From the sequence record NC_135729.1: 64,000 nucleotides of DNA; one strand, 5' to 3'. Positions 16,429-26,388 of the stretch are shown one piece after another. The notes under the pieces are model-generated. The model worked only from the letters and a program-made list of their open reading frames with translations, did no database searches and was not told the DNA's origin. Both the position numbers and the translations under genes were made by a program. The stretch's first letter is position 1. The number at the start of each line of letters is the position of its first letter. The DNA comes from a phage.

Positions 16429-16698
16429 TTATCGAGGCACTCGGTGGATGATTCTAACAGTAACTGCATTTTCATTCATCAAGTATGCATCTACATCTCT
16501 GTAAATATAAAACTTCTGCTCACTATCAACAACACAAGCTACCGCCCCTTCAGAGTTGTCTTCAAAAAAGACCACCACTGCATCGCAGCTGAGTTCATGA
16601 TATGACTCTCGAAGATTTACAGCCAGAGGATTGAAATCGTCACGAAAATCTACGGTATGGGTTGGATTTACACGCTCTACAATTTTAAGTGTATACAT
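16429..16698 (-). CDS. hypothetical protein
   Basis: Track ORF trimmed to Met (MYTLKIV) with AAGGAA SD so it no longer overlaps tRNA-Pro. Confidence 0.4.
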   Translation of the reverse strand: MYTLKIVERVNPTHTVDFRDDFNPLAVNLRESYHELSCDAVVVFFEDNSEGAVACVVDSEQKFYIYRDVDAYLMNENAVTVRIIHRVPR

Positions 16699-16744
16699 TT
16701 TAAAGGTTCCTTTTGTTTGTATATGTTTAAAGTATAACTGAAAG

Positions 16745-16821
16745 TGGTCTCCACGGAGTGATTCGAACACTCGACCTCCTGATCCCAAATCAGGCGCTCT
16801 ACCAAGCTGAGCTACGCGGAG
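16745..16821 (-). tRNA. tRNA-Pro (anticodon TGG)
   Basis: Hand-folded cloverleaf: C1-G72 acceptor, D-arm GCTC/GAGC, anticodon loop TTTGGGA, T-loop TTCGAAT, encoded CCA. Confidence 0.8.
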
Positions 16822-16832
16822 TATCTACTATT

Positions 16833-16907
16833 TGGTGGCCCTGGGTGGAATTGAACCACCGTCTGGCGATTATGAGTCGCTTGCTTGAACCTTCCAGCTA
16901 CAGGGCC
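16833..16907 (-). tRNA. tRNA-Met (anticodon CAT; initiator, elongator or Ile2 not resolved)
   Basis: Hand-folded cloverleaf, anticodon loop CTCATAA, T-arm GGTGG/CCACC, encoded CCA. Confidence 0.7.
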
Positions 16908-16908
16908 A

Positions 16909-16983
16909 TGGTGCTGATGGCAGGACTTGAACCCGCAACCTATTGATTACAAATCAATTGCACTACCAATTGTGCTACATCAG
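16909..16983 (-). tRNA. tRNA-Thr (anticodon TGT)
   Basis: Hand-folded cloverleaf, D-arm GCAC/GTGC, anticodon loop TTTGTAA, T-loop TTCAAGT, encoded CCA. Confidence 0.8.
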
Positions 16984-16988
16984 CAAAA

Positions 16989-17087
16989 AGGTGCTAGGCG
17001 GTGGAATCGAACCACCTATGTATTCAACGACTACCTCGTCTATTTTCAGGATTAAAAATCCTCGCCCTTGCCAAAGGGCTTACCTAG
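16989..17087 (-). tRNA. aberrant tRNA-like element (about 97 nt; anticodon unresolved)
   Basis: Canonical acceptor stem, D-arm (GCCC/GGGC) and T-arm (GGTGG-TTCGATT-CCACC), but about 30 nt extra between anticodon-like hairpin and T-arm. Confidence 0.35.
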
Positions 17088-17185
17088 CTCAATATGTTGA
17101 CCATGTTGCTAGTCGGCGATGACGACTGTAACATTTGATAATCCGGTTCTGCTTCCGGCTTTCGCTTAATTGCAAGGTCAACAAT

Positions 17186-17276
17186 GTGGCGGAGAGTAAT
17201 GGAATCGAACCATCATCGAGTCATCCTCAACGGGACGGTTTTCAAGACCGCTTGAGCACCATTGCTCCCTACCCTC
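17186..17276 (-). tRNA. tRNA-Ser (anticodon TGA), type II
   Basis: Acceptor GGAGGGT, anticodon loop CTTGAAA, long variable arm, T-loop TTCGATT, encoded CCA. Confidence 0.7.
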
Positions 17277-17392
17277 CTTTATAAATTATACTGATAATGA
17301 CACTGATTTTCGAGCAGTTAGTGACTAGTATAAACGACGATAAATATCAATGCCATTATCTGTATTATTTATGCATCTAAAAAATATAAATT

Positions 17393-17479
17393 TGGTGGGG
17401 AGTGGTGGAGTCGAACCACCCGAGTCGCAATGACAATAGATTTACAGTCTACACCGCTACCTCTACGGGATAACTCCCC
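17393..17479 (-). tRNA. tRNA-Tyr (anticodon GTA), type II
   Basis: Anticodon loop CTGTAAA; variable arm TGTCATTGCGACTCG closely resembles E. coli tRNA-Tyr; T-arm GGTGG/CCACC; CCA encoded. Confidence 0.75.
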
Positions 17480-17483
17480 AATT

Positions 17484-17558
17484 TGGCACCCCGTACTGGA
17501 CTCGAACCAGTGTCAACGGCTTAGAAGGCCGCTGCTTTATCCACTAAGCTAACAGGGC
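17484..17558 (-). tRNA. tRNA-Arg (anticodon TCT)
   Basis: D-arm GCTT/AAGC, anticodon loop CTTCTAA, T-loop TTCGAGT, encoded CCA. Confidence 0.8.
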
Positions 17559-17616
17559 ACTGGGTGGCTTTCTTTTACACCTTAGCCGCCAGAAAAGGTG
17601 GGAGACCATGTTTACA

Positions 17617-17645
17617 ATATTACACTGTTAAGCAAAGTTTGTCAA
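17617..17645 (-). promoter_or_regulatory. sigma70-like promoter upstream of tRNA cluster
   Basis: TTGACA, 17-nt spacer, TAATAT on minus strand, about 55 nt upstream of tRNA-Arg. Confidence 0.55.
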
Positions 17646-17654
17646 GAAAATATT

Positions 17655-17993
17655 TTAGCTATTGCTAACAGGCTGTATTTCTGTAGTAAATGGCATAAAA
17701 GGTGCTGGTTTTTCAGCCTCTTCCACTACCACCTCTTCCTCTTCACCAAACATCTCATCATATTCTTCCTGCATTCGGTCTGCCTTATCAAGAACATACT
17801 CTGCAATGCTTTGACGAATATTTTGTTTGGTTTTCGGGTCCAACATCAGCTCTCTTAAAACTTTGTGAGCTTCTGGAACCATCGCTATAAAAGATTCCTT
17901 CATATCAAGGATGTTCTTCTCTAGCTGAATGGCGTTGGACTCCTCTTTCAGAGGTCTGCCTCTACGGCGACGCTTTTTAGTTGTATCCGCCAT
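17655..17993 (-). CDS. small basic protein, possible DNA-binding
   Basis: Start at Met (MADTTKKRRRRGRP) with GGAGGAAAC SD; basic N-terminus, acidic C-terminus. Confidence 0.45.
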   Translation of the reverse strand: MADTTKKRRRRGRPLKEESNAIQLEKNILDMKESFIAMVPEAHKVLRELMLDPKTKQNIRQSIAEYVLDKADRMQEEYDEMFGEEEEVVVEEAEKPAPFMPFTTEIQPVSNS

Positions 17994-18021
17994 GTTTCCT
18001 CCATTATCACGTGATAGGTGG

Positions 18022-18050
18022 ATTTTATCACAGCAAATACTGATTGTCAA
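18022..18050 (-). promoter_or_regulatory. sigma70-like promoter with overlapping palindromic operator-like site
   Basis: TTGACA, 17-nt spacer, TAAAAT on minus strand; palindrome TTATCACGTGATA (about 18004-18016) at the predicted transcription start. Confidence 0.5.
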
Positions 18051-18327
18051 GTTCGCCGCAGGGTGGTGTTCCCTGCGACTTGTCCAGCGTCCTGGACCAG
18101 CAAGTTTTCCAGCTATACCCATTACCGCGCTCAGGCTCGACCTTATTACAGGTTGGCTGGGGTCACATCGTCATGTGCTGGCTGCCCCTACCATTTTAAG
18201 TGTGGTGCACTATCAAGCCCTCTAAGGGGAACTCAGTCTTCTCCGAACCCTGTTTCAAAGCATCCGGAGATAAAGCCATCAAATTCATCTTTAAATTGGA
18301 TATTCATCATGATACACGAAAACAACC

Positions 18328-18570
18328 TCATTGTAAAGCGCAAATAAATAAAACATACTTAATTTGTTTGTTATCAGGCTCAGGGTAGAAGTAGAAGATC
18401 TTGCTATCACCGATCTGAACACCACCATCCCAACAGCATAGCCCATAACCTGTATTCATACAAGCTAGGTCGTTGGCAAAATCTATTGCATCATCCAGTG
18501 CACGAAATTCACCTTCATCTTCTAAATAATCCTCATTCATGGAACGAAAAACGAGCTTAACCTTAAACAT
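18328..18570 (-). CDS. hypothetical protein
   Basis: 80-aa ORF, no motif. Confidence 0.35.
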   Translation of the reverse strand: MFKVKLVFRSMNEDYLEDEGEFRALDDAIDFANDLACMNTGYGLCCWDGGVQIGDSKIFYFYPEPDNKQIKYVLFICALQ

Positions 18571-18646
18571 AGCATTACCTGTAGACCTCGTAAGTTAAAA
18601 TTGCATCACATCATATTGCAGATCTTATCAGGTAACACTATTTTTG

Positions 18647-18856
18647 TCAACAGATTCCGGCCTTATCCTTCCTGTCTGCGTATTCTTTAATCGCAACCTC
18701 ATCTGCATTAGTGACCAGGTATTCAAAGTAACTCTCAAGCTCCTCGTCAATGTCAGGAGACCAGCTCTTTTTCCTGTCAGTGTGAATTGCAGACTTGTTG
18801 AACTTATTACAGTTCTTTGCTACCGGGTTGTTCATTAAGCGCTCCTCAGCGTTCAT
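18647..18856 (-). CDS. hypothetical protein
   Basis: 69-aa ORF, start overlaps upstream gene end. Confidence 0.35.
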   Translation of the reverse strand: MNAEERLMNNPVAKNCNKFNKSAIHTDRKKSWSPDIDEELESYFEYLVTNADEVAIKEYADRKDKAGIC

Positions 18857-19424
18857 AGTAAATTTTATTTAACATTACCTCATCCTTTGCAGAAAGGATA
18901 TCTAGATATGCATCACCGAATCTACCTGCAACAACCTCTGCATGATACATCACTTCGTTAATATCGTCAAGAGTGATAACTGGATGACCGTATCTCTCTG
19001 AGTATTGTCTCAGAGTGCGATGTAGGGAGTCATCATCATAGGCAGACTTTTTAATATCGCAAACACGACGAATAGCCTTGATGTCGAAAAACCCTGTACG
19101 ATACCAACCAAGAAAAAGGTTTCGTGCAGTGTCAACATCTACATCAATACCATTAAGAACCTTATCTACAAGATAGCTGTCATCCTTTGGACCAGCTTCC
19201 TTAGTGCGAATGTAGTTGCCATCTTTTCCAGGTGACATCTCCTTCTCATCACCAACCTGCATGCCATCATTTGGCGGTGTTAGCCACTTATCCGGATGCT
19301 TACGATCACGAGCGTTAGAATGATTACGCTGGAAACCAGGCTTCCACTTGAAAGTTTTCTCCATCTGTTCTTCATTCTGATAACGTTTTGCAATCTTTTC
19401 ACGGTCATCTTTGCGTGAACCCAT
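18846..19424 (-). CDS. hypothetical protein
   Basis: 192-aa ORF with GAGGAGG SD upstream of ATG. Confidence 0.45.
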   Translation of the reverse strand: MGSRKDDREKIAKRYQNEEQMEKTFKWKPGFQRNHSNARDRKHPDKWLTPPNDGMQVGDEKEMSPGKDGNYIRTKEAGPKDDSYLVDKVLNGIDVDVDTARNLFLGWYRTGFFDIKAIRRVCDIKKSAYDDDSLHRTLRQYSERYGHPVITLDDINEVMYHAEVVAGRFGDAYLDILSAKDEVMLNKIYYER

Positions 19425-19927
19425 AGCTGCCTCCTCTTCAAGTTATAGAAAAACTCACTGTATCACTTTGTAACGAGCTTTTCTATCAAACTGGTGCGAT
19501 TGCATTACCTGGTATAGTTCATATAGCTGTGGAGCGATTTAGGGGCCTTCTTGTCAGTTTCCACACATAAACTTCATCCAAGCTCGCGCGGGAGACTCTC
19601 AACCGACTCCTTACGGCGCTGGCAAGCTTTCGTCGGTGGTCCACATCAGTGCTCGGCCTTTGGCCTGCGCTATCGCTTCGCTCCCACACATGTTAACAGA
19701 CCTGCATGTATGCACTTCTGTTATTGTGTGCACCAAGGAGGCCCGGCATCTCGCCCCTCGTAGGCGAGTGCCAATGAAGGGCCGACACTACCTATAGTAA
19801 GTAATAATTTTAAAACATGGTACTTAGGATCTAGTATATTCTACATAAGTTAAGTATATGTACTTAGTACCATAAGTACTAGATCTTTTATTTTTTATTA
19901 TTTAGTTATTTTAGTTATATTCTTTAT

Positions 19928-20010
19928 GTGTCCGTATCACGGACAGTTAGTGTCCGTATTACGGGCAGATGTGTCCGCGTGACGGACAGTAGTGTCCGTA
20001 TCACGGGCAG
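19928..20010. repeat. array of four tandem 22-bp palindromic repeats (iteron/operator-like)
   Basis: GTGTCCGTATCACGGACAG and three close variants in direct tandem, each with internal dyad TGTCCGT/ACGGACA; adjacent to 120-bp AT-rich tract. Confidence 0.7.
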
Positions 20011-20084
20011 TTACTGACCTCTGTTCCAGAGCGAACATAAAACATACGAATCCTTATAGTACAGATATTTAAGTTTTTACTGGT

Positions 20085-20435
20085 CTAACCAGTTGTTGAC
20101 ATTCGAATAACCTCTTCTGGTGGCAAAACTTTGGAAAATGTACATCTTTTACCTCTCCCTTGTGTGGATATTTCAACCACTCCTGCACATTCTAAAGTTT
20201 TAACGCACGCTGCTGCTTTTGTTTTCTTTATCCCAACATCTGCTGCAATTTTCCTTGTGCTTGGTGTGAAGCGTGAATTTCCTCCAAGCTTATACCAGTT
20301 GTGCAGGTAGCAGTATACGATCTTGTCATATAAGTCAAGAACAACAGCCTCCCCAGTTGTGTCATTCAAAACTTTTGACATAGACAGTATTTCAAGGGGG
20401 ACTTTAAGATATAGCAGCTTATCCCCATCTTTCAT
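20085..20435 (-). CDS. hypothetical protein (possible DNA-binding protein next to repeat array)
   Basis: 116-aa ORF whose stop is about 75 bp from the palindromic repeat array. Confidence 0.4.
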   Translation of the reverse strand: MKDGDKLLYLKVPLEILSMSKVLNDTTGEAVVLDLYDKIVYCYLHNWYKLGGNSRFTPSTRKIAADVGIKKTKAAACVKTLECAGVVEISTQGRGKRCTFSKVLPPEEVIRMSTTG

Positions 20436-20482
20436 ATCTCCTGATTCTCCTTGTGTGGCAATTTTCTTTAAAATAGCAGGGA

Positions 20483-21037
20483 TTACTCCCCGCTGTCAAT
20501 AGCAAGACTCATTGCAATACGGTATGCCTCTTCTAATGGTAAGAGTCTCCCCCACACATCCCAACCGACATCAAACTGCCTGCCAAACAACTGCTGTGTG
20601 GTTCCGTGAGCATGACCGAACAGTTGGACTGATCCGTGAGGCTTTCTGTTCCACTTTGCAAACTGGTAATGGCTCATACAGATCAAATTCTTGTTGTGGC
20701 GAAGCTCGTAATAATCTACAACCTCATGACCGAACTCTTTCATAATTCTGACAGTCGTCCTTGTGTCATGGTTACCACGAACAAGAATAATATGTCCGTT
20801 CAACATATTTAGAACATCTGGGAGCAATTTGTTGATATTCTTATCATTAGTGCACGCAATATCTCCCAAGTGAAACACAGTGTCTGCAGGTGACACAACA
20901 GAGTTCCACTCGGCGATGATTCCCGCATTCATACTGTCAAGATTGTGATCATACTGAGATCTGTGTTTTTGACATGAATCAAACTCCATGACCCGCTGGT
21001 GGAGAAAGTGTGTGTCGCTTGTTACAAAGTATTTCAT
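20483..21037 (-). CDS. calcineurin-like metallophosphoesterase (putative polynucleotide 3'-phosphatase)
   Basis: Start at Met (MKYFVTSDTHF); metallophosphatase motifs D-T-H, GDI, VRGNHD, GHAH. Confidence 0.7.
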   Translation of the reverse strand: MKYFVTSDTHFLHQRVMEFDSCQKHRSQYDHNLDSMNAGIIAEWNSVVSPADTVFHLGDIACTNDKNINKLLPDVLNMLNGHIILVRGNHDTRTTVRIMKEFGHEVVDYYELRHNKNLICMSHYQFAKWNRKPHGSVQLFGHAHGTTQQLFGRQFDVGWDVWGRLLPLEEAYRIAMSLAIDSGE

Positions 21038-21044
21038 ACATTCC

Positions 21045-21455
21045 TCATTTAAGTTTAATGCAGTTTTTAAGCTGGCGTTCCATACGATCCACAACCTTGT
21101 CTGGAACATCATGAATGCTTTTATTACCGTGGCGGTTTTCAACCACGATCACGGTATAACTATACCCGTGACTGATTGCCATGTCAACATATTCCTGCAC
21201 ATGTTTTTCTTTTGTAAACGTATTACTTACCACGATACGGTCGTATCCCGTACGCATCATATCTTCTACGTTATCTTTGCACCATTTTGCTGCGAGTGTT
21301 ACTTTACTTGCATCCCAGTTGTAATTGCCGTCATCGTCATACCAGAACATGTCGTTCTCAAAATGTGGATACAGACCTTCTAAAGATAGCGCATTTGCCA
21401 GTGTTGATTTGCCAGACCCTGGCAGACCACGCACGATATATAGCATTTTAGACAT
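21045..21455 (-). CDS. P-loop kinase (polynucleotide kinase-like)
   Basis: Start at Met (MSKMLYIVRG) with GGAGGG SD; Walker A GLPGSGKST; immediately upstream of the phosphatase gene. Confidence 0.6.
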   Translation of the reverse strand: MSKMLYIVRGLPGSGKSTLANALSLEGLYPHFENDMFWYDDDGNYNWDASKVTLAAKWCKDNVEDMMRTGYDRIVVSNTFTKEKHVQEYVDMAISHGYSYTVIVVENRHGNKSIHDVPDKVVDRMERQLKNCIKLK

Positions 21456-21515
21456 AGCAACCCTCCGTTTTAATTTTAATGATAGTATACCTAACTGTTT
21501 TGTTAATTTCAAGTG

Positions 21516-21545
21516 TTGACACTAGGTTATTTGTGTGGCATGATA
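21516..21545 (+). promoter_or_regulatory. possible promoter for ligase operon
   Basis: TTGACA at 21516 but only a weak -10 candidate. Confidence 0.3.
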
Positions 21546-21573
21546 GACTGACAAAATGACAAATGAGGAACGT

Positions 21574-22491
21574 ATGATGAAGTATTTTAATGCAGATGAC
21601 CTAGTAGACAAAGGTCTTGTAACCAGTCGGTATTATCCAGATCTTGGATTAAAGATCTATAAATATGCCAGAAAAGTATTCTACAACAATCTGTGGCATT
21701 TGTCTCCGCGTTTACTGGAGTGCCGAGGTATTGTTGTTGGCAATGAGGGGAATGTTGTGGCATGGCCTTTCACAAAAGTATTCAACTTAGGAGAAAACTC
21801 CACCAACCTACCGGACAGTAAACTTGTTACTGCGGTAGAGAAAAAGAACGGATTCCTCGGTGTGGTATCATCTCATAAAGGTGAACTATTGTTCTCAACA
21901 ACCGGGTCTCTTGATTCTCCATATTGTAACCTTGCAAAGGAAACCATCCAAGAGCAATGTGGTAATTTAGATCTTATCAAGAAGGTTATGGGCAATGAAA
22001 ACATGACATTCATGTTTGAAATTTGTCACCCTTCAGATCCGCATATTGTTCAGGAAGATCATGGCGCATATTTGATAGGTTGCAGATATAATGATTCTGG
22101 AATAATGCTACCAGAAGCAGCTTTAGATGGGATTGCCAAATACCTTGGTGCAAAACGTCCTCACACTGTGCGTGAAATTCCGTTCAGCTATGCAAAAGAA
22201 TTAGCTGCAGAAACAAGAGGTGAAGGGTATATGATTCGTAAGCCTTACTACCCTTATGATCTGCAGCTGAAGATCAAGTCTCCATACTATCTGGCACGGA
22301 AGGCCGTAATGAGGGGTAAAGCTTGGAAGATTTGGGATGATGATATCTTTAAACGTGTTGACGAAGAGTTTTACGGCATGGTAAACTTCATTCGTAGCAA
22401 TTACACAGAGGATGTGTGGAACTGCCTCCTGGAGCAGGAACGCCGTGAGATACTTGATTACTATTTCCACAACGAGAACTATATGCAATGA
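21574..22491 (+). CDS. nucleotidyltransferase of ligase family, probably RNA ligase
   Basis: Motif I-like EKKNGF, motif III-like FMFEIC, motif V-like EGYMIRK; divergent from kinase/phosphatase pair; start uncertain (track start 21556). Confidence 0.5.
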   Translation: MMKYFNADDLVDKGLVTSRYYPDLGLKIYKYARKVFYNNLWHLSPRLLECRGIVVGNEGNVVAWPFTKVFNLGENSTNLPDSKLVTAVEKKNGFLGVVSSHKGELLFSTTGSLDSPYCNLAKETIQEQCGNLDLIKKVMGNENMTFMFEICHPSDPHIVQEDHGAYLIGCRYNDSGIMLPEAALDGIAKYLGAKRPHTVREIPFSYAKELAAETRGEGYMIRKPYYPYDLQLKIKSPYYLARKAVMRGKAWKIWDDDIFKRVDEEFYGMVNFIRSNYTEDVWNCLLEQERREILDYYFHNENYMQ

Positions 22492-22838
22492 AGAAGTTGA
22501 TTGTGTGGCTAGATGACTTAAGAGATCCGTCAAATTACGGGCTCCCAGACGCTGTTTGGCTGAAGAATTCCTCCGAGTTTATGGATTTTATTAACGATAA
22601 GGGAAAGCTCTACAGACGCGTTTCTGAGTGGCATATGGACAACGACCTAGGAGAAGTATTCGAAGGATACGATTGCCTATCCATGTTGGAGGAAAAATTT
22701 GTATTCGGTAAGCCTCCCGTGGTTGACAACGTGAAGATTTTCGTACATACTTCTAATCCATCAGCGGCTCGTAAATTCATGCTTGCAGCTGACTCGTTTA
22801 AAAAGTTTGGAATAGAGATTAAACAAAACATCTACTGA
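22488..22838 (+). CDS. hypothetical protein coupled to ligase
   Basis: 116-aa ORF overlapping ligase stop by 4 nt; conserved-looking acidic patches (WLDDLRDP, WHMDNDLG). Confidence 0.4.
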   Translation: MKKLIVWLDDLRDPSNYGLPDAVWLKNSSEFMDFINDKGKLYRRVSEWHMDNDLGEVFEGYDCLSMLEEKFVFGKPPVVDNVKIFVHTSNPSAARKFMLAADSFKKFGIEIKQNIY

Positions 22839-22846
22839 GGGCACTT

Positions 22847-23608
22847 ATGCGACGACTGATTATTATCTCCGGTGCTGGTTTGAGCGCTGAATCTGGTATT
22901 CCCACTTTCCGATCTGGTAGTACTGCAATGTGGGAGAATTTCAGCATAGATGAGGTGTGCAACATCCACACCTTCGCCAAGAACTACTATAAGGTGCATG
23001 ACTTTTACAATGCACGTCGTGTAGCTCTGGGCAGTGTTGATCCTAACCTTGCACATCTCCGGATCGCTGAGTGGTATTCCCGCTGGTCTGGTCGTGTGAT
23101 CAACCTGACCACCAATGTAGATGATTTGCTGGAGCGTGCTGGTGTAAAACATGAAGATATTTTACATGTCCACGGGTATTTGCCTGAAATCACCTATGAA
23201 GATACTGAAGGTAATGATGTAATTAAAAATATAGGGTACACGGAGGTAGATACAGGCAAGTATACCTGGGTTAAGCCCAATGTAGTGTTCTTCGGTGAGG
23301 TTGCTCCTAAGTATACAGACATGTATGACCTGTTGACATCTCTTACCAGCAATGATATGGTGATCCTGGTAGGTTGTTCTAACACAGTTATTAATTTTAA
23401 CTGGGAATTGTTTCCTGCTACTTGTAAAGGCACAAAACTGCTGATTGTAAACAAGTATGATTCGCAGAGTGCAGATGGAAGTGGCATTTCACGTAGCGAC
23501 CTTTATCAATATGAGGATCGCGGGATCCCTGTATGGTTTAACGGTGCTGTTGACGCTTTCTCTGATAAAGCATTTATTGAAACTGTAGAAAACTTTATGG
23601 AACTGTAA
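22847..23608 (+). CDS. Sir2-like NAD-dependent enzyme (sirtuin family)
   Basis: GAGLSAESGIPTFRS Rossmann motif, TTNVDDLLERAG and HVHG catalytic-His motif; no CxxC zinc ribbon seen. Confidence 0.7.
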   Translation: MRRLIIISGAGLSAESGIPTFRSGSTAMWENFSIDEVCNIHTFAKNYYKVHDFYNARRVALGSVDPNLAHLRIAEWYSRWSGRVINLTTNVDDLLERAGVKHEDILHVHGYLPEITYEDTEGNDVIKNIGYTEVDTGKYTWVKPNVVFFGEVAPKYTDMYDLLTSLTSNDMVILVGCSNTVINFNWELFPATCKGTKLLIVNKYDSQSADGSGISRSDLYQYEDRGIPVWFNGAVDAFSDKAFIETVENFMEL

Positions 23609-23622
23609 GAGGTGACCTTTTA

Positions 23623-24336
23623 ATGCTAAATACTAAACTGATCGACAACCTGGAAAAACTGTCTCAGCCAGAAAACTACCTTTGGTCTGCCAGTTGGGTG
23701 GAAAATTGGAACCGTGTAGCAGCTAAAGTGAAAAAATCATACACACCATTCGAACTCCAGCTCAGTTTTATTGAAGAAGAGTTTAATGAGGTTCTTGAAG
23801 AGTTGGAGAAAGGTGATGGTGGAGATCACCTGCTAAAAGAGGCCTGTGATCTGCACGTTGTTACAAGTTATGCCGCTTATCTTGTCAACGATAACTACGA
23901 AAAGTGGACAAGTCTGTTTGATAATTCGCGAGATATTAAGTTTAAGATTGGGGAGTTCTATGATACACTGATCGCTGCTAAAAACACACCAAAGCAAAAA
24001 GCGTCTGCTTACCGACTAGCGGAGTTATCAACAGCTTTGCTGTTCCAGCTTAGCGGGGATGTGTGTGGGATGATGCGGAAGGTTCTCAAATCTAATGACA
24101 GTAAGTTTGCGCGGATCAACCATCTACGGCATTCACACGGTGCTAGTGCAGATATGCCTGCTGAACAACTCATAGAGTTGGAGATTAAAGATCTTGAGCG
24201 ACGCTTTGATGGTCGCTACGAAGGTTTTGTTGCTAAGGAAGAGTTCTACAACGGTAATAAAGTTATCATATTCCTTGACAGTAAAGGTAAGATCATGAAG
24301 CCTTCGAGCTTCAAGGATGTAACAGAGTATATTTGA
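23623..24336 (+). CDS. hypothetical protein, possibly MazG-like NTP pyrophosphohydrolase
   Basis: EEEFNEVLEELEKGD ... KEACDLHVV resembles the MazG E-x-x-E ... E-x-x-D pattern; weak. Confidence 0.3.
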   Translation: MLNTKLIDNLEKLSQPENYLWSASWVENWNRVAAKVKKSYTPFELQLSFIEEEFNEVLEELEKGDGGDHLLKEACDLHVVTSYAAYLVNDNYEKWTSLFDNSRDIKFKIGEFYDTLIAAKNTPKQKASAYRLAELSTALLFQLSGDVCGMMRKVLKSNDSKFARINHLRHSHGASADMPAEQLIELEIKDLERRFDGRYEGFVAKEEFYNGNKVIIFLDSKGKIMKPSSFKDVTEYI

Positions 24337-24342
24337 CAACAT

Positions 24343-24369
24343 AGCCGGGTAATCCCGGCTTTACTTATT
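24343..24369 (+). terminator. intrinsic terminator-like hairpin
   Basis: AGCCGGG-taat-CCCGGCT followed by TTACTTATT. Confidence 0.45.
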
Positions 24370-24398
24370 ATGGAAAGTATGCAGCGAGGTAGTTAGTT

Positions 24399-24707
24399 AT
24401 GTACAAGCATTCCAGAGATCTTGAAAAAGATGCTGTGTTTGGCGACCAGATGAAGGAGCTGATCAAACTTATAGGTAGAATGGAAGATAAGTTTGACACT
24501 AAAATCTACATCGATAGCAAGATCTTCAACCACAAAATATGGACAAATGTGTGTGTTGGGCTACATGGTGATAAAGATATTGTAAATTTGGTTGTAATAA
24601 AGTTCATAGTGTGGCAGAATAAGACTATACGTTATTCCGATCCACACTTACTTGTTTATCCTATAAAAGACCTACTACAGAAGGAGGACTGCAATGCCGT
24701 TATTTAA
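24399..24707 (+). CDS. hypothetical protein
   Basis: 102-aa ORF. Confidence 0.35.
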   Translation: MYKHSRDLEKDAVFGDQMKELIKLIGRMEDKFDTKIYIDSKIFNHKIWTNVCVGLHGDKDIVNLVVIKFIVWQNKTIRYSDPHLLVYPIKDLLQKEDCNAVI

Positions 24708-24963
24708 TCTTGCTAAACCTGTAGAAGCCCACCAGTTTGACGGAAGCTCTTCATCAGTATCTGATCTGCAACGGTGGATTGATACAGGTGTGTTTACATC
24801 GTCACCTGTTCGGACCAGAGATCTTCGTCGCATGTGTGAGCTTGTCGAGCCTTTTGGTAACCTTGTCTTGTACCAGGGAGATTGGCTAGTTGACTTTATG
24901 GGAGACTGGTTGGTAATGAGTAAAGAAGAGATGTTTAAAATTTTTAAGGAAGAGGCCGAGTAA
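24694..24963 (+). CDS. hypothetical protein
   Basis: 89-aa ORF overlapping neighbours (coupled). Confidence 0.35.
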   Translation: MPLFNLAKPVEAHQFDGSSSSVSDLQRWIDTGVFTSSPVRTRDLRRMCELVEPFGNLVLYQGDWLVDFMGDWLVMSKEEMFKIFKEEAE

Positions 24964-26246
24964 TGCATCAAATCAAAACAACACTGTACGCACTGAACAA
25001 AGATGGCAGCTACCAACAGTGGAAAGTATTCACTGATGGCGAAAAGGTTATCGTAGAGTTTGGCAAGCTTGACGGTAAATTGCAGTACAAAGAGACGGTA
25101 TGCACACCTAAGAACGTAGGTCGTGCCAATGAGACTACAGCTGAGCAACAGGCCGAGCTTGAGGCTATCAGCAAGTGGGAAAAACAAGTCCGTCTGGGGT
25201 ATGTTGAAAACATGGAAGATTGCGAGCAGGGTGTTGATCTTTTACCCATGCTGGTGCATGACTACCTGAAGCGTGGCAAGGCACTTAAACTACCTTGCTG
25301 GATCTTGCGTAAGTTAGATGGCCTTCGTCTGCTTGTTGTTTTCCAAAATGGTGAGCCTAAATTTATTTCCCGTGGTAATAAGTCCTACCCTATTCAAGGA
25401 AAGCTTTTAGAGCAACTTCGTTCTTTCCATTCTACCACTGGGATTAAACAACTTGATGGGGAACTATACATTCATGGTCTTCCTTTGCAGAAAATAGTGT
25501 CTCTTGCTAAACGGTGGCGCACACAGGAAGAGATTCAGGCCGAGATCGATAAAGACTATGAGGCAGATAAAAAACGCCGTCATGCCGCAATTAAGTCCGG
25601 CTTATCAACATATAAAAACTTCAACAAGGTAGATATTCCTGTCGATGTTGAGCCTGTTCGTGATGATTTGCGTTACGGTGGGTACTGTAGCTACGATCTG
25701 GAGTATCACATTTTTGATATTCCTAGCGACAAGGTGTGGTGGGATCCCGAAACAGAGTCTGGACGCTGCAAGGATCTTATGGATGCAGAGGATACCGTTA
25801 CCACTCTGATGCTTGACCATATCAAGGTTGTTGACGCAGAGCTTGCGTACACAGTTGATCATTGCGAAGAATCTGTTGGTATATTCATGTCCGAAGGATA
25901 TGAAGGTACCATTATGCGTAACTTCTGTGGTAAATATGAGTACGGTCAGAGAACATCTGAAGCATTGAAATGGAAAAAGTTCAACGACGCAGAGGTGAAA
26001 GTTATTGACGTTGAGAAAGATAAGAATGATGAAGGTGTTCTTATCTGTGTTGACAAGGAAGGTATTGTTGTTAAAATGAAGATGAAAGGTACGCACGAGG
26101 AGCGTAGCTATGACAGAATGCAGGAAATGATCGGCAAGTTTGTCACCTTCAAATATCAAGCAAGGACAGAAGACAACAACTACCAATTCCCTGTCGGTAT
26201 CTGCGTCCGAAATGTTAACCCAGACACTTGGGAGGTGCTGGAATAA
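24963..26246 (+). CDS. ATP-dependent DNA ligase
   Basis: Motif I KLDGLR (KxDGxR), motif V-like EGTIMRN; 427 aa. Confidence 0.75.
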   Translation: MHQIKTTLYALNKDGSYQQWKVFTDGEKVIVEFGKLDGKLQYKETVCTPKNVGRANETTAEQQAELEAISKWEKQVRLGYVENMEDCEQGVDLLPMLVHDYLKRGKALKLPCWILRKLDGLRLLVVFQNGEPKFISRGNKSYPIQGKLLEQLRSFHSTTGIKQLDGELYIHGLPLQKIVSLAKRWRTQEEIQAEIDKDYEADKKRRHAAIKSGLSTYKNFNKVDIPVDVEPVRDDLRYGGYCSYDLEYHIFDIPSDKVWWDPETESGRCKDLMDAEDTVTTLMLDHIKVVDAELAYTVDHCEESVGIFMSEGYEGTIMRNFCGKYEYGQRTSEALKWKKFNDAEVKVIDVEKDKNDEGVLICVDKEGIVVKMKMKGTHEERSYDRMQEMIGKFVTFKYQARTEDNNYQFPVGICVRNVNPDTWEVLE

Positions 26247-26388
26247 TTTAGGTATGTTTAGTAGCCAATTGAATAAGTGTTTTCAATTTGCACCTACATA
26301 TGCCCTGATGTATGAACTGTGCAACCTAGCCACACCACACAGTGGTGCTGATCGGGGCTCGTTATGAGTGAACTGGAGAGTATGAAAA

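Follow-up and report, generated by a model that had tools for sequence, protein, structure and literature searches.

A phage sirtuin that lacks zinc ligands, encoded among RNA-repair genes of an rV5-like phage

We analyzed a Sir2-family gene located in a 64,000-nt stretch of phage DNA (sequence record NC_135729.1, one strand; the whole stretch is called the window here) that represents an rV5-like Vequintavirus. As judged by sequence comparison and a structural model, the 253-residue product is a canonical CobB/SIRT5-like (class III-like) sirtuin that has secondarily lost its zinc ligands. The gene lies within a tight operon of RNA-repair genes (Table 1), and we favor, tentatively and as possible rather than probable, a role for this NAD+-consuming enzyme and its zinc-less phage branch in a phage RNA end-healing and sealing module, where it would carry out ADP-ribosyl transfer coupled to RNA repair. 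The gene family, its neighborhood, and the RNA-repair hypothesis were published on computational grounds, with this phage group as the prototype, by Iyer, Burroughs, Anantharaman, and Aravind (2022, Viruses 14:1977, section 3.7.3; PMC9503650), so the additions made here are modest. By sequence comparison, the loss of the zinc ligands is derived and common to the phage relatives examined, and it goes with a TQN-to-TTN change. In addition, the linkage to RNA-repair genes recurs in zinc-less lineages and is not seen beside the zinc-bearing viral relatives sampled.

The open reading frame (ORF) starts with ATG, and a GAGGG ribosome-binding site is situated 8 nt 5' of the start. The product matched the Pfam SIR2 family PF02146 (E = 7.2e-28 and 98.2 bits, where 24 is the cut-off; profile positions 1-178 of 180 covered), PHROG 2162 'Sir2' (E = 1e-108), and, in a sequence search of the PDB, E. 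coli CobB (1s5p, E = 3e-21) and human SIRT5 (about 1e-21); these scores exclude a chance match by a wide margin. PF02146 was the sole Pfam match at E ≤ 0.01, and the Sir2 assignment of an earlier sequence-only reading of the gene stands, with the protein placed in the canonical SIR2 family. An AlphaFold2 (AF2) model built from 70 homologues (pLDDT 89.5, pTM 0.88) predicted the Rossmann plus small-domain fold of sirtuins. Comparison of this model with the PDB by Foldseek placed CobB (1s5p/6rxq) at the top, with a probability of 1.00, TM scores of 0.75 (query-normalized) and 0.84 (target-normalized), and 27% identity, followed by SIRT5, Sir2Af1, and SIRT2; all 50 of the 50 best matches were canonical sirtuins. 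The best NCBIfam matches were CobB models, and every one of them fell well under its cut-off (122.5 vs 243 bits for NF001753 and 103.9 vs 320 bits for NF040867, with the remaining CobB models lower still), which leaves the protein inside the Pfam family and outside the CobB equivalog and subfamily models. An exhaustive HMMER search of 1.84 billion representatives returned 5,501 relatives. Of 50,697 phage records, 1,012 contained a homologue, with T5-like, rV5-like, Phapecoctavirus-like, and jumbo phages among them. Longer homologues carried no extra domains other than SIR2 itself and one WG repeat. Public records that name the gene mostly call it 'NAD-dependent deacetylase' or 'Sir2-like protein', by homology only. 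The protein is acidic (isoelectric point [pI] 4.9, net charge -12), as is the family (median pI 5.1).

The Cys4 zinc module of canonical sirtuins is missing from the phage protein. Its only cysteines are C38, C177, and C193, no CxxC occurs anywhere in the sequence, and residues 111-147, between HVHG and VVFFGE, contain neither Cys nor His; in the PDB alignment, the segment of CobB that runs from the HG motif to the FGE loop includes four cysteines (RCS...KCHCC), and that of the phage protein none. The sequence-only reading had described the Rossmann signature GAGLSAESGIPTFRS (residues 9-23), the catalytic HVHG motif (residues 107-110), and the lack of a CxxC...CxxC module; we read both motifs as it did, and the lack of the module proved to be family-wide. 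Among 120 cluster representatives of at least 46% identity, the ribbon region held no cysteine in 70, one in 48, and two in 2, and never four. The tetrad is also missing from the more distant phage sirtuins of 121Q, Vibrio phage K575, and Serratia phage BF. The combination of CobB-clade membership with an intact zinc module was thus not found, the zinc ligands being absent and the CobB models scoring below their cut-offs.

The closest relatives in the HMMER search were zinc-less, and the full CxxC...CxxC pattern appeared from about E = 1e-46 onward in proteins from large viral contigs and from bacterial genomes, mostly metagenome-assembled genomes of Campylobacterota. BLASTP alignment to one zinc-bearing relative (P0142) gave 46% identity over 192 residues, with the first knuckle changed from CTKC to YEDT and the second (CPNC and the residues that follow it) deleted in a 9-residue gap; profile-profile comparison by hhalign (probability 100) agreed on this gap. 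In place of the ribbon, the AF2 model has confident strands at residues 110-118, 124-128, and 142-146, which form a degenerate beta module. On a crude neighbor-joining tree from which the ribbon columns were left out, zinc status changed 11 times, compared with a mean of 42 changes when it was shuffled, which points to a few derived losses of zinc. An ancestral absence of zinc was considered and is rejected in view of the zinc-bearing relatives at 46% identity together with the tree. A second zinc-less group (P0222, P0223, P0239, P0242, and P0264) retains TQN and has Ala at the position of Cys38; to judge from these sequences, it appears to have lost the zinc ligands independently.

The absence of the zinc ribbon had been taken in the sequence-only reading as a likeness to NAD-consuming defense effectors, and an ADP-ribosyltransferase or NAD-processing enzyme for host takeover or anti-defense had been suggested there. 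On this view, the protein would be an effector-like NADase that depletes NAD+ or a protein ADP-ribosyltransferase that modifies host proteins. Sirtuin folds are able to hydrolyze NAD+, and the missing zinc cysteines are shared with the SIR2_2 NADases: in the defense sirtuins ThsA and DSR1/DSR2, which belong to SIR2_2, the whole zinc module is absent and the sheet is seven-stranded (PMC12700824). The phage protein resembles these proteins and those of the Sir2-HerA and SPARSA systems in having a Sir2 Rossmann core without zinc. They are, however, joined to or paired with sensor domains, whereas the window protein keeps a degenerate ribbon and is a stand-alone 253-residue polypeptide with no sensor domain or sensor partner. 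SIR2_2 (PF13289) was absent from its Pfam scan, no PADLOC defense model fitted it (one spurious 13-bit match only), it shares 46% identity with zinc-bearing canonical sirtuins, and its nearest folds are those of CobB, SIRT5, and Sir2Af. The scan of the surrounding genes turned up no HerA, TIR/SLOG, pAgo, or macro domain. Furthermore, a lytic phage needs NAD+, and relatives of this phage place NAD-salvage genes alongside the sirtuin, which argues against deliberate NAD+ depletion. We regard this explanation as very unlikely. A defense-type Sir2 was rejected on the basis of the missing SIR2_2 and PADLOC matches and the canonical sirtuins among the best folds; what survives of the interpretation is ADP-ribosyl transfer or NAD processing, which is a plausible activity for the protein, and the likeness to defense effectors is unsupported.

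The residues expected to bind NAD+ and to catalyze its reaction are retained. Across the 70 homologues, the invariant positions were G9, A10, G11, S16, F21, R22, W29, and C38 in the N-terminal part, followed by F53, Y54, R57, R58, P66, N67, H70, T89, N90, V91, D92, H109, G110, K143, P144, F148, F149, E151, G176, S178, and N202. The canonical positions G9-A10-G11, S13, N90, D92, and H109-G110 were invariant or near-invariant in 70-120 homologues. Because the catalytic and NAD-binding residues (GAG, S16, F21, R22, N90, D92, H109, FGE, and N202) are invariant, the enzyme is predicted to be active. The Y-x-x-R pair, by which class III deacylases recognize the acyl carboxylate, is present as Y54/R57, which align with the CobB pair and are also invariant; we take their counterparts to be Y92/R95 of CobB and Y102/R105 of SIRT5. 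Likeness to CobB and SIRT5 (1s5p, 6rxq, and 3riy) therefore comprises the fold, about 27% identity to CobB, GAGxS, Y-x-x-R, the Asn and Asp of TQNxD, the catalytic His, and the FGE loop. The differences are the lack of zinc ligands and a shortened ribbon, two altered canonical positions (TQNxD has become TTNVD, with Thr for Gln, and GTS has become GCS, with Cys for Thr), an invariant Cys38 in place of A76 of CobB, and the location of the gene, in a phage genome and within an operon for RNA repair.

The TQN position was compared among representatives with a full ribbon region. In those that are zinc-less, it was Thr in 35 of 49 and Gln in 8 of 49; in those that bear zinc, Gln was present in 74 of 86. 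On these counts the loss of zinc and the change of Gln travel together, a pairing that suggests a change of function. Cys38 (codon 22958-22960) is a conserved thiol beside the reaction center. Its position, invariant in the close family, is occupied by Cys in 122 of 148 relatives from a wider set that includes zinc-bearing ones, and presumably aligns with A76 of CobB and A86 of SIRT5, which line the acyl pocket, according to our own mapping and numbering.

The Sir2 gene is the third of four genes whose stop and start codons overlap or are at most 15 nt apart, in the order Rnl1-like RNA ligase, cREC (cyclic-phosphate-processing receiver domain) protein, sirtuin, and MazG-like protein. The cREC start overlaps the ligase stop codon, and residues D9, D10, D51, and D53 of the cREC protein are invariant. 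The MazG-like gene is annotated as a nucleotide pyrophosphohydrolase in phage Murica. A P-loop kinase gene and a phosphoesterase gene diverge from the intergenic region that also precedes the operon. In the sequence-only reading the sirtuin had been placed beside an RNA ligase; this ligase is real, but it sits two genes upstream with cREC between, and the four-gene RNA-repair operon, already in the literature (PMC9503650), had been overlooked.

This arrangement corresponds to the phage RNA-repair-associated sirtuin clade of Iyer et al., whose type 2 neighborhoods contain a T4-like RNA ligase, cREC, a nucleotide kinase, MazG, and, in some cases, a calcineurin-like phosphoesterase, with 'Escherichia phage V5' as the prototype, and which was noted to be without a macro partner (PMC9503650). 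The window has the same gene family and neighborhood: every partner named there lies no farther than 2.4 kb from the sirtuin, with ligase, cREC, kinase, and MazG linked to it, and a macro partner is absent. No difference in kind was found between the two. The role predicted for the sirtuin in that work, and a prediction there, is to strip 2'-phosphates from RNA in the manner of KptA/Tpt1, and the partners were predicted to open a cyclic phosphate or to process the resulting ADP-ribose cyclic phosphate (PMC9503650). In a text search of the same article, neither zinc nor zinc-binding cysteines came up for these sirtuins, so that the loss of zinc, the TQN-to-TTN change, and the contrast to zinc-bearing viral relatives are not reported there. 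In the literature we found no biochemical, genetic, or enzyme-assay work on phage sirtuins belonging to this clade; the NARP3 paper has PnuC and NadR, not the phage sirtuin, as its subject.

Other lineages surround zinc-less sirtuins with different partners. In the T5-like phage ESCO40 the order is Sir2, a small ORF, and the HAD_SAK_2 'Swiss-army-knife' RNA-repair phosphatase; in the jumbo phage 121Q it is Sir2, a Nudt16-like Nudix protein, and cREC; and in Serratia phage BF it is a 2H/Acb1-like protein, a small zinc-binding protein, Sir2, and a Nudix-cREC fusion. We surveyed 56 sirtuin loci from IMG/VR, with BLAST for the neighbors. HAD_SAK_2 was present within 0.8-1.3 kb in 28 of the 56, all of them T5-like. 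In eleven loci the ligase, kinase, phosphoesterase, MazG, and DNA ligase are all present within ~4 kb, with identities of 26-62% and a different order of the genes; eight of these also have cREC within ~5.4 kb, and a further two loci retain part of that set; the loci are not independent samples, and divergent partners escape BLAST and Pfam. Three Phapecoctavirus-like contigs (L037-L039) without repair genes next to the sirtuin have cREC at another place on the contig. The control consisted of 139 neighbor ORFs from 26 viral loci that encode zinc-bearing relatives, and cREC, Nudix, and HAD_SAK_2 were not recurrent among them; nitroreductase was found four times and Rnl1 twice. With this control lacking the linkage, the association with RNA repair belongs to the zinc-less branch. 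Distant cREC loci have calcineurin-like phosphoesterases (5 ORFs) and Rnl1 (3 ORFs) as neighbors, which supports an RNA-repair role for cREC but is no direct evidence on the sirtuin; the 25 families listed for these loci included neither Sir2 nor KptA.

Two tandem DUF7415 proteins ('exonuclease' in ESCO40) were observed 3' of the sirtuin in two T5-like loci. They follow the HAD_SAK_2 gene in L004 (6502-7332, where the first copy alone was scanned) and come right after the sirtuin in L032 (6969-7762), a locus in which no match to HAD_SAK_2 was found.

In some lineages the neighbors include NAD-salvage genes. Serratia phage BF (L005, 1-5680) has NAMPT and a cytidylyltransferase-like gene just upstream, and Pfam identified NAMPT directly upstream of the sirtuin in L060 (4057-5490) and a PRPP-synthetase-like gene near it in L061 (3460-4332), along with a DNA ligase and MazG. 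These surroundings could be an NAD-economy or anti-defense island rather than one for pure RNA repair. The sirtuin might accordingly act, together with Nudix/MazG, cREC, and 2H partners, on a small NAD-derived molecule or on NAD-capped RNA, for example by destroying or re-using ADP-ribose immune signals or toxic metabolites or by processing 5'-NAD caps. The 2H partner in BF is a match to the Acb1 family of anti-CBASS proteins (E = 3.6e-15), the Nudix partners resemble Nudt16, and pyrophosphatases (MazG or Nudix), which act on nucleotides, are among the partners common to the lineages. In the window, however, the operon contains an RNA ligase and adjoins a polynucleotide-kinase-like gene, which directs attention to RNA ends, and we know of no sirtuin that processes cyclic ADP-ribose signals. 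We consider a small-molecule or NAD-cap function improbable.

For the RNA-repair role that we favor, we inferred the substrate and all of the chemical steps, following Iyer et al. (2022). A host nuclease would cut tRNA or mRNA and leave a 2',3'-cyclic phosphate, the cyclic end would be opened by cREC and/or the phosphoesterase, the 5'-OH would be phosphorylated by the P-loop kinase, and the Rnl1-like ligase would seal the break. The sirtuin would then use NAD+ to remove the leftover 2'-phosphate: the phosphate would attack C1'' of NAD+ with departure of nicotinamide, and the 2''-OH of the ADP-ribose, activated by His109, would attack the phosphate to release ADP-ribose 1''-2'' cyclic phosphate. 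This step would be Tpt1/KptA chemistry on a sirtuin scaffold. The released cyclic phosphate would finally be degraded by cREC and the MazG-like pyrophosphatase.

Sirtuins and Tpt1 are alike in that a nucleophile attacks C1'' of NAD+, after which the 2''-OH forms a 1'',2''-cyclic species. The likeness to Tpt1/KptA is one of proposed reaction, in which a 2'-phosphate is taken off RNA at the expense of NAD+ by way of an ADP-ribosylated intermediate and 2''-OH attack; the folds are unrelated, and the sirtuin is not a member of the KptA family. The Y-x-x-R pair binds an anionic group in CobB and SIRT5, and by analogy the invariant Y54/R57 could hold a phosphate. This chemical parallel, the invariant Y/R pair, the intact catalytic residues, the structure of the operon, the varied partners with a constant theme, and the contrast with zinc-bearing relatives are the reasons for our preference. 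The NAD-salvage genes adjoining the sirtuin (NAMPT in L060 and BF) fit stoichiometric use of NAD+. We also count the prediction of Iyer et al. (2022) for the same neighborhood as independent agreement. The SirTM sirtuins, which ADP-ribosylate proteins, would be similar in using ADP-ribosyl transfer instead of deacylation. They differ in being linked to a macrodomain; none was found in the seven genes scanned around the window sirtuin.

Fungal and plant tRNA ligation employs a cyclic phosphodiesterase, a kinase, an Rnl1-type ligase, and Tpt1, and the phage operon would mirror this pathway. In a further-reaching proposal, zinc-less phage sirtuins of the TTN type would act on nucleic acid, as the first of their family to do so; they would be RNA 2'-phosphotransferases convergent on Tpt1/KptA, and the phage system would be the bacterial-virus analogue of fungal and plant tRNA ligation. 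Loss of the ribbon and the Gln-to-Thr change would then be adaptations that moved the enzyme from acyl-lysine to RNA phosphate. We hold this convergence to be doubtful.

Several observations weigh against a function in RNA repair. To our knowledge, no sirtuin has been shown to act on nucleic acid, and Tpt1 enzymes are basic, whereas the phage sirtuin is acidic. T4-type healing or a calcineurin-type phosphoesterase can remove the end phosphate fully, so that the 2'-phosphate need never arise. Phage genes cluster by time of expression, which makes adjacency weaker evidence than in bacteria. No RNA-repair neighbors were detectable by BLAST in 15 of the 56 loci; among several of these scanned with Pfam, HAD_SAK_2 lies 3 kb away in L059 and a phosphoesterase is present in L052. 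Only unknowns were found by Pfam near the sirtuin in the Phapecoctavirus-like loci scanned, and the T5-like loci had no homologues of the RNA ligase or kinase of the window within 6 kb of the sirtuin. A displacement of KptA by the sirtuin was considered as well: KptA homologues were found in 98 phage records, none of which is named as an Escherichia or Salmonella phage, a comparison that is confounded by phylogeny because different genera are involved. The KptA neighborhoods were uninformative on this point; Pfam identified no RNA-repair partners in two whose flanks were scanned, and the scan of a third covered one neighbor gene. Lastly, the CobB acyl-pocket positions, which from the names of PDB mutants we take to be A76, Y92, I131, and V187, plus R95, align in our own mapping on the CobB alignment with the similar residues C38, Y54, R57, V91, and V146/147, and an ordinary deacylase would look alike.

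This last point leads to the main rival, that the protein is a CobB/SIRT5-type lysine deacylase with a succinyl, malonyl, or acetyl preference that resets host or phage acylation during infection. Candidate targets would be translation factors, metabolic enzymes, and the neighboring ligases, whose active-site lysines might be blocked by non-enzymatic acylation. CobB and SIRT5 are the closest solved relatives by sequence and fold, the CobB NCBIfam models are the best matches, and the Y-x-x-R pair, the catalytic His, and the peptide-binding FGE loop are all invariant; the similar pocket side chains and the deacetylase name in public records, given by homology only, point the same way, and the acidity of the protein is no obstacle to protein binding. 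On the other hand, every CobB equivalog model was far under its cut-off, the conserved Gln of TQN is replaced, and the zinc module, degenerate and shortened here, is reported to be necessary for deacetylation by canonical sirtuins (PMC12700824). A deacylase would also leave unexplained the recurrent linkage to cREC, Nudix, 2H, and HAD_SAK_2 across unrelated phage lineages and the lack of that linkage in zinc-bearing viral relatives. On balance, we judge a deacylase to be rather unlikely.

If the RNA-repair prediction is true, sirtuin chemistry extends to nucleic acids, and the operon provides a phage pathway that reverses cleavage of tRNA or mRNA by host nucleases, a matter of relevance to the escape of therapeutic E. 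coli, Salmonella, and Klebsiella phages from RNA-targeting defenses. If the protein is only a deacylase, it would show that a canonical sirtuin can do without its zinc ribbon. Either outcome corrects or confirms the widespread 'NAD-dependent deacetylase' annotation.

Table 1. Coordinates of the sirtuin gene, its motifs, and the surrounding features in the window.
Feature	Position	Strand	Basis or remark
Sir2-family gene, zinc-less class III-like sirtuin (253 residues)	22847..23608	+	Pfam, PHROG, PDB sequence, AF2, Foldseek
NAD-binding motif GAGLSAESGIPTFRS, residues 9-23	22871..22915	+	read from sequence
YNARR, residues 54-58, Y-x-x-R pair of class III sirtuins	23006..23020	+	aligned to CobB 'FYNARR'
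TTNVD, residues 88-92, TQNxD variant with Gln->Thr	23108..23122	+	T89, N90, V91, D92 invariant
HVHG, residues 107-110, catalytic histidine H109	23165..23176	+	H109, G110 invariant
Degenerate zinc-ribbon module, residues 111-143, no Cys/His	23177..23275	+	BLASTP, hhalign, AF2 model
FFGE, residues 148-151, substrate-binding FGE loop	23288..23299	+	F148, F149, E151 invariant
Calcineurin-like metallophosphoesterase, divergent	20483..21037	-	Pfam Metallophos, Metallophos_2; limits from Murica
P-loop kinase (AAA_33, polynucleotide-kinase-like), divergent	21045..21455	-	Pfam AAA_33 E=2e-10; limits from Murica
Promoter-like site 5' of ligase gene	21516..21544	+	consensus match only
T4 Rnl1-like RNA ligase, operon gene 1	21556..22491	+	Pfam RNA_lig_T4_1 E=9e-15; phrog_562
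cREC protein	22488..22838	+	Pfam cREC_REC PF20274 E=1.5e-14
MazG-like nucleotide pyrophosphohydrolase, last operon gene	23623..24336	+	phrog_671 E=5e-21; no Pfam match
Terminator-like hairpin, operon end	24343..24360	+	also annotated terminator in Murica
ATP-dependent DNA ligase, after operon	24963-26246		

For the divergent genes, the ORF program placed the starts at TTG codons (21142 for the phosphoesterase and 21512 for the kinase), which makes both longer than the Murica genes, and the true starts are uncertain. Seven tRNAs (Pro, Met, Thr, an odd one, Ser, Tyr, and Arg) were called by ARAGORN at 16745-17558 on the minus strand, 4 kb from the operon. The odd call (16990-17088) spans 99 nt, has 'atcc' as a four-base anticodon, and is labeled tRNA-OTHER (Asp|Gly) in Murica. 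An Rfam scan of 16600-24500 returned tRNAs only; at the gathering threshold it recovered five of the seven ARAGORN tRNAs, missing the 16990-17088 call and the tRNA-Ser. Region 21500-26300 of the window shares 98.4% identity with Escherichia phage PDX and 97% with Murica. The same region is matched by 18 'Campylobacter phage' GenBank records (MG0656xx), 16 of which give C. jejuni as the host; 12 among the matches listed are 96-97% identical to the region, and these records are probably mislabeled or contaminant assemblies.

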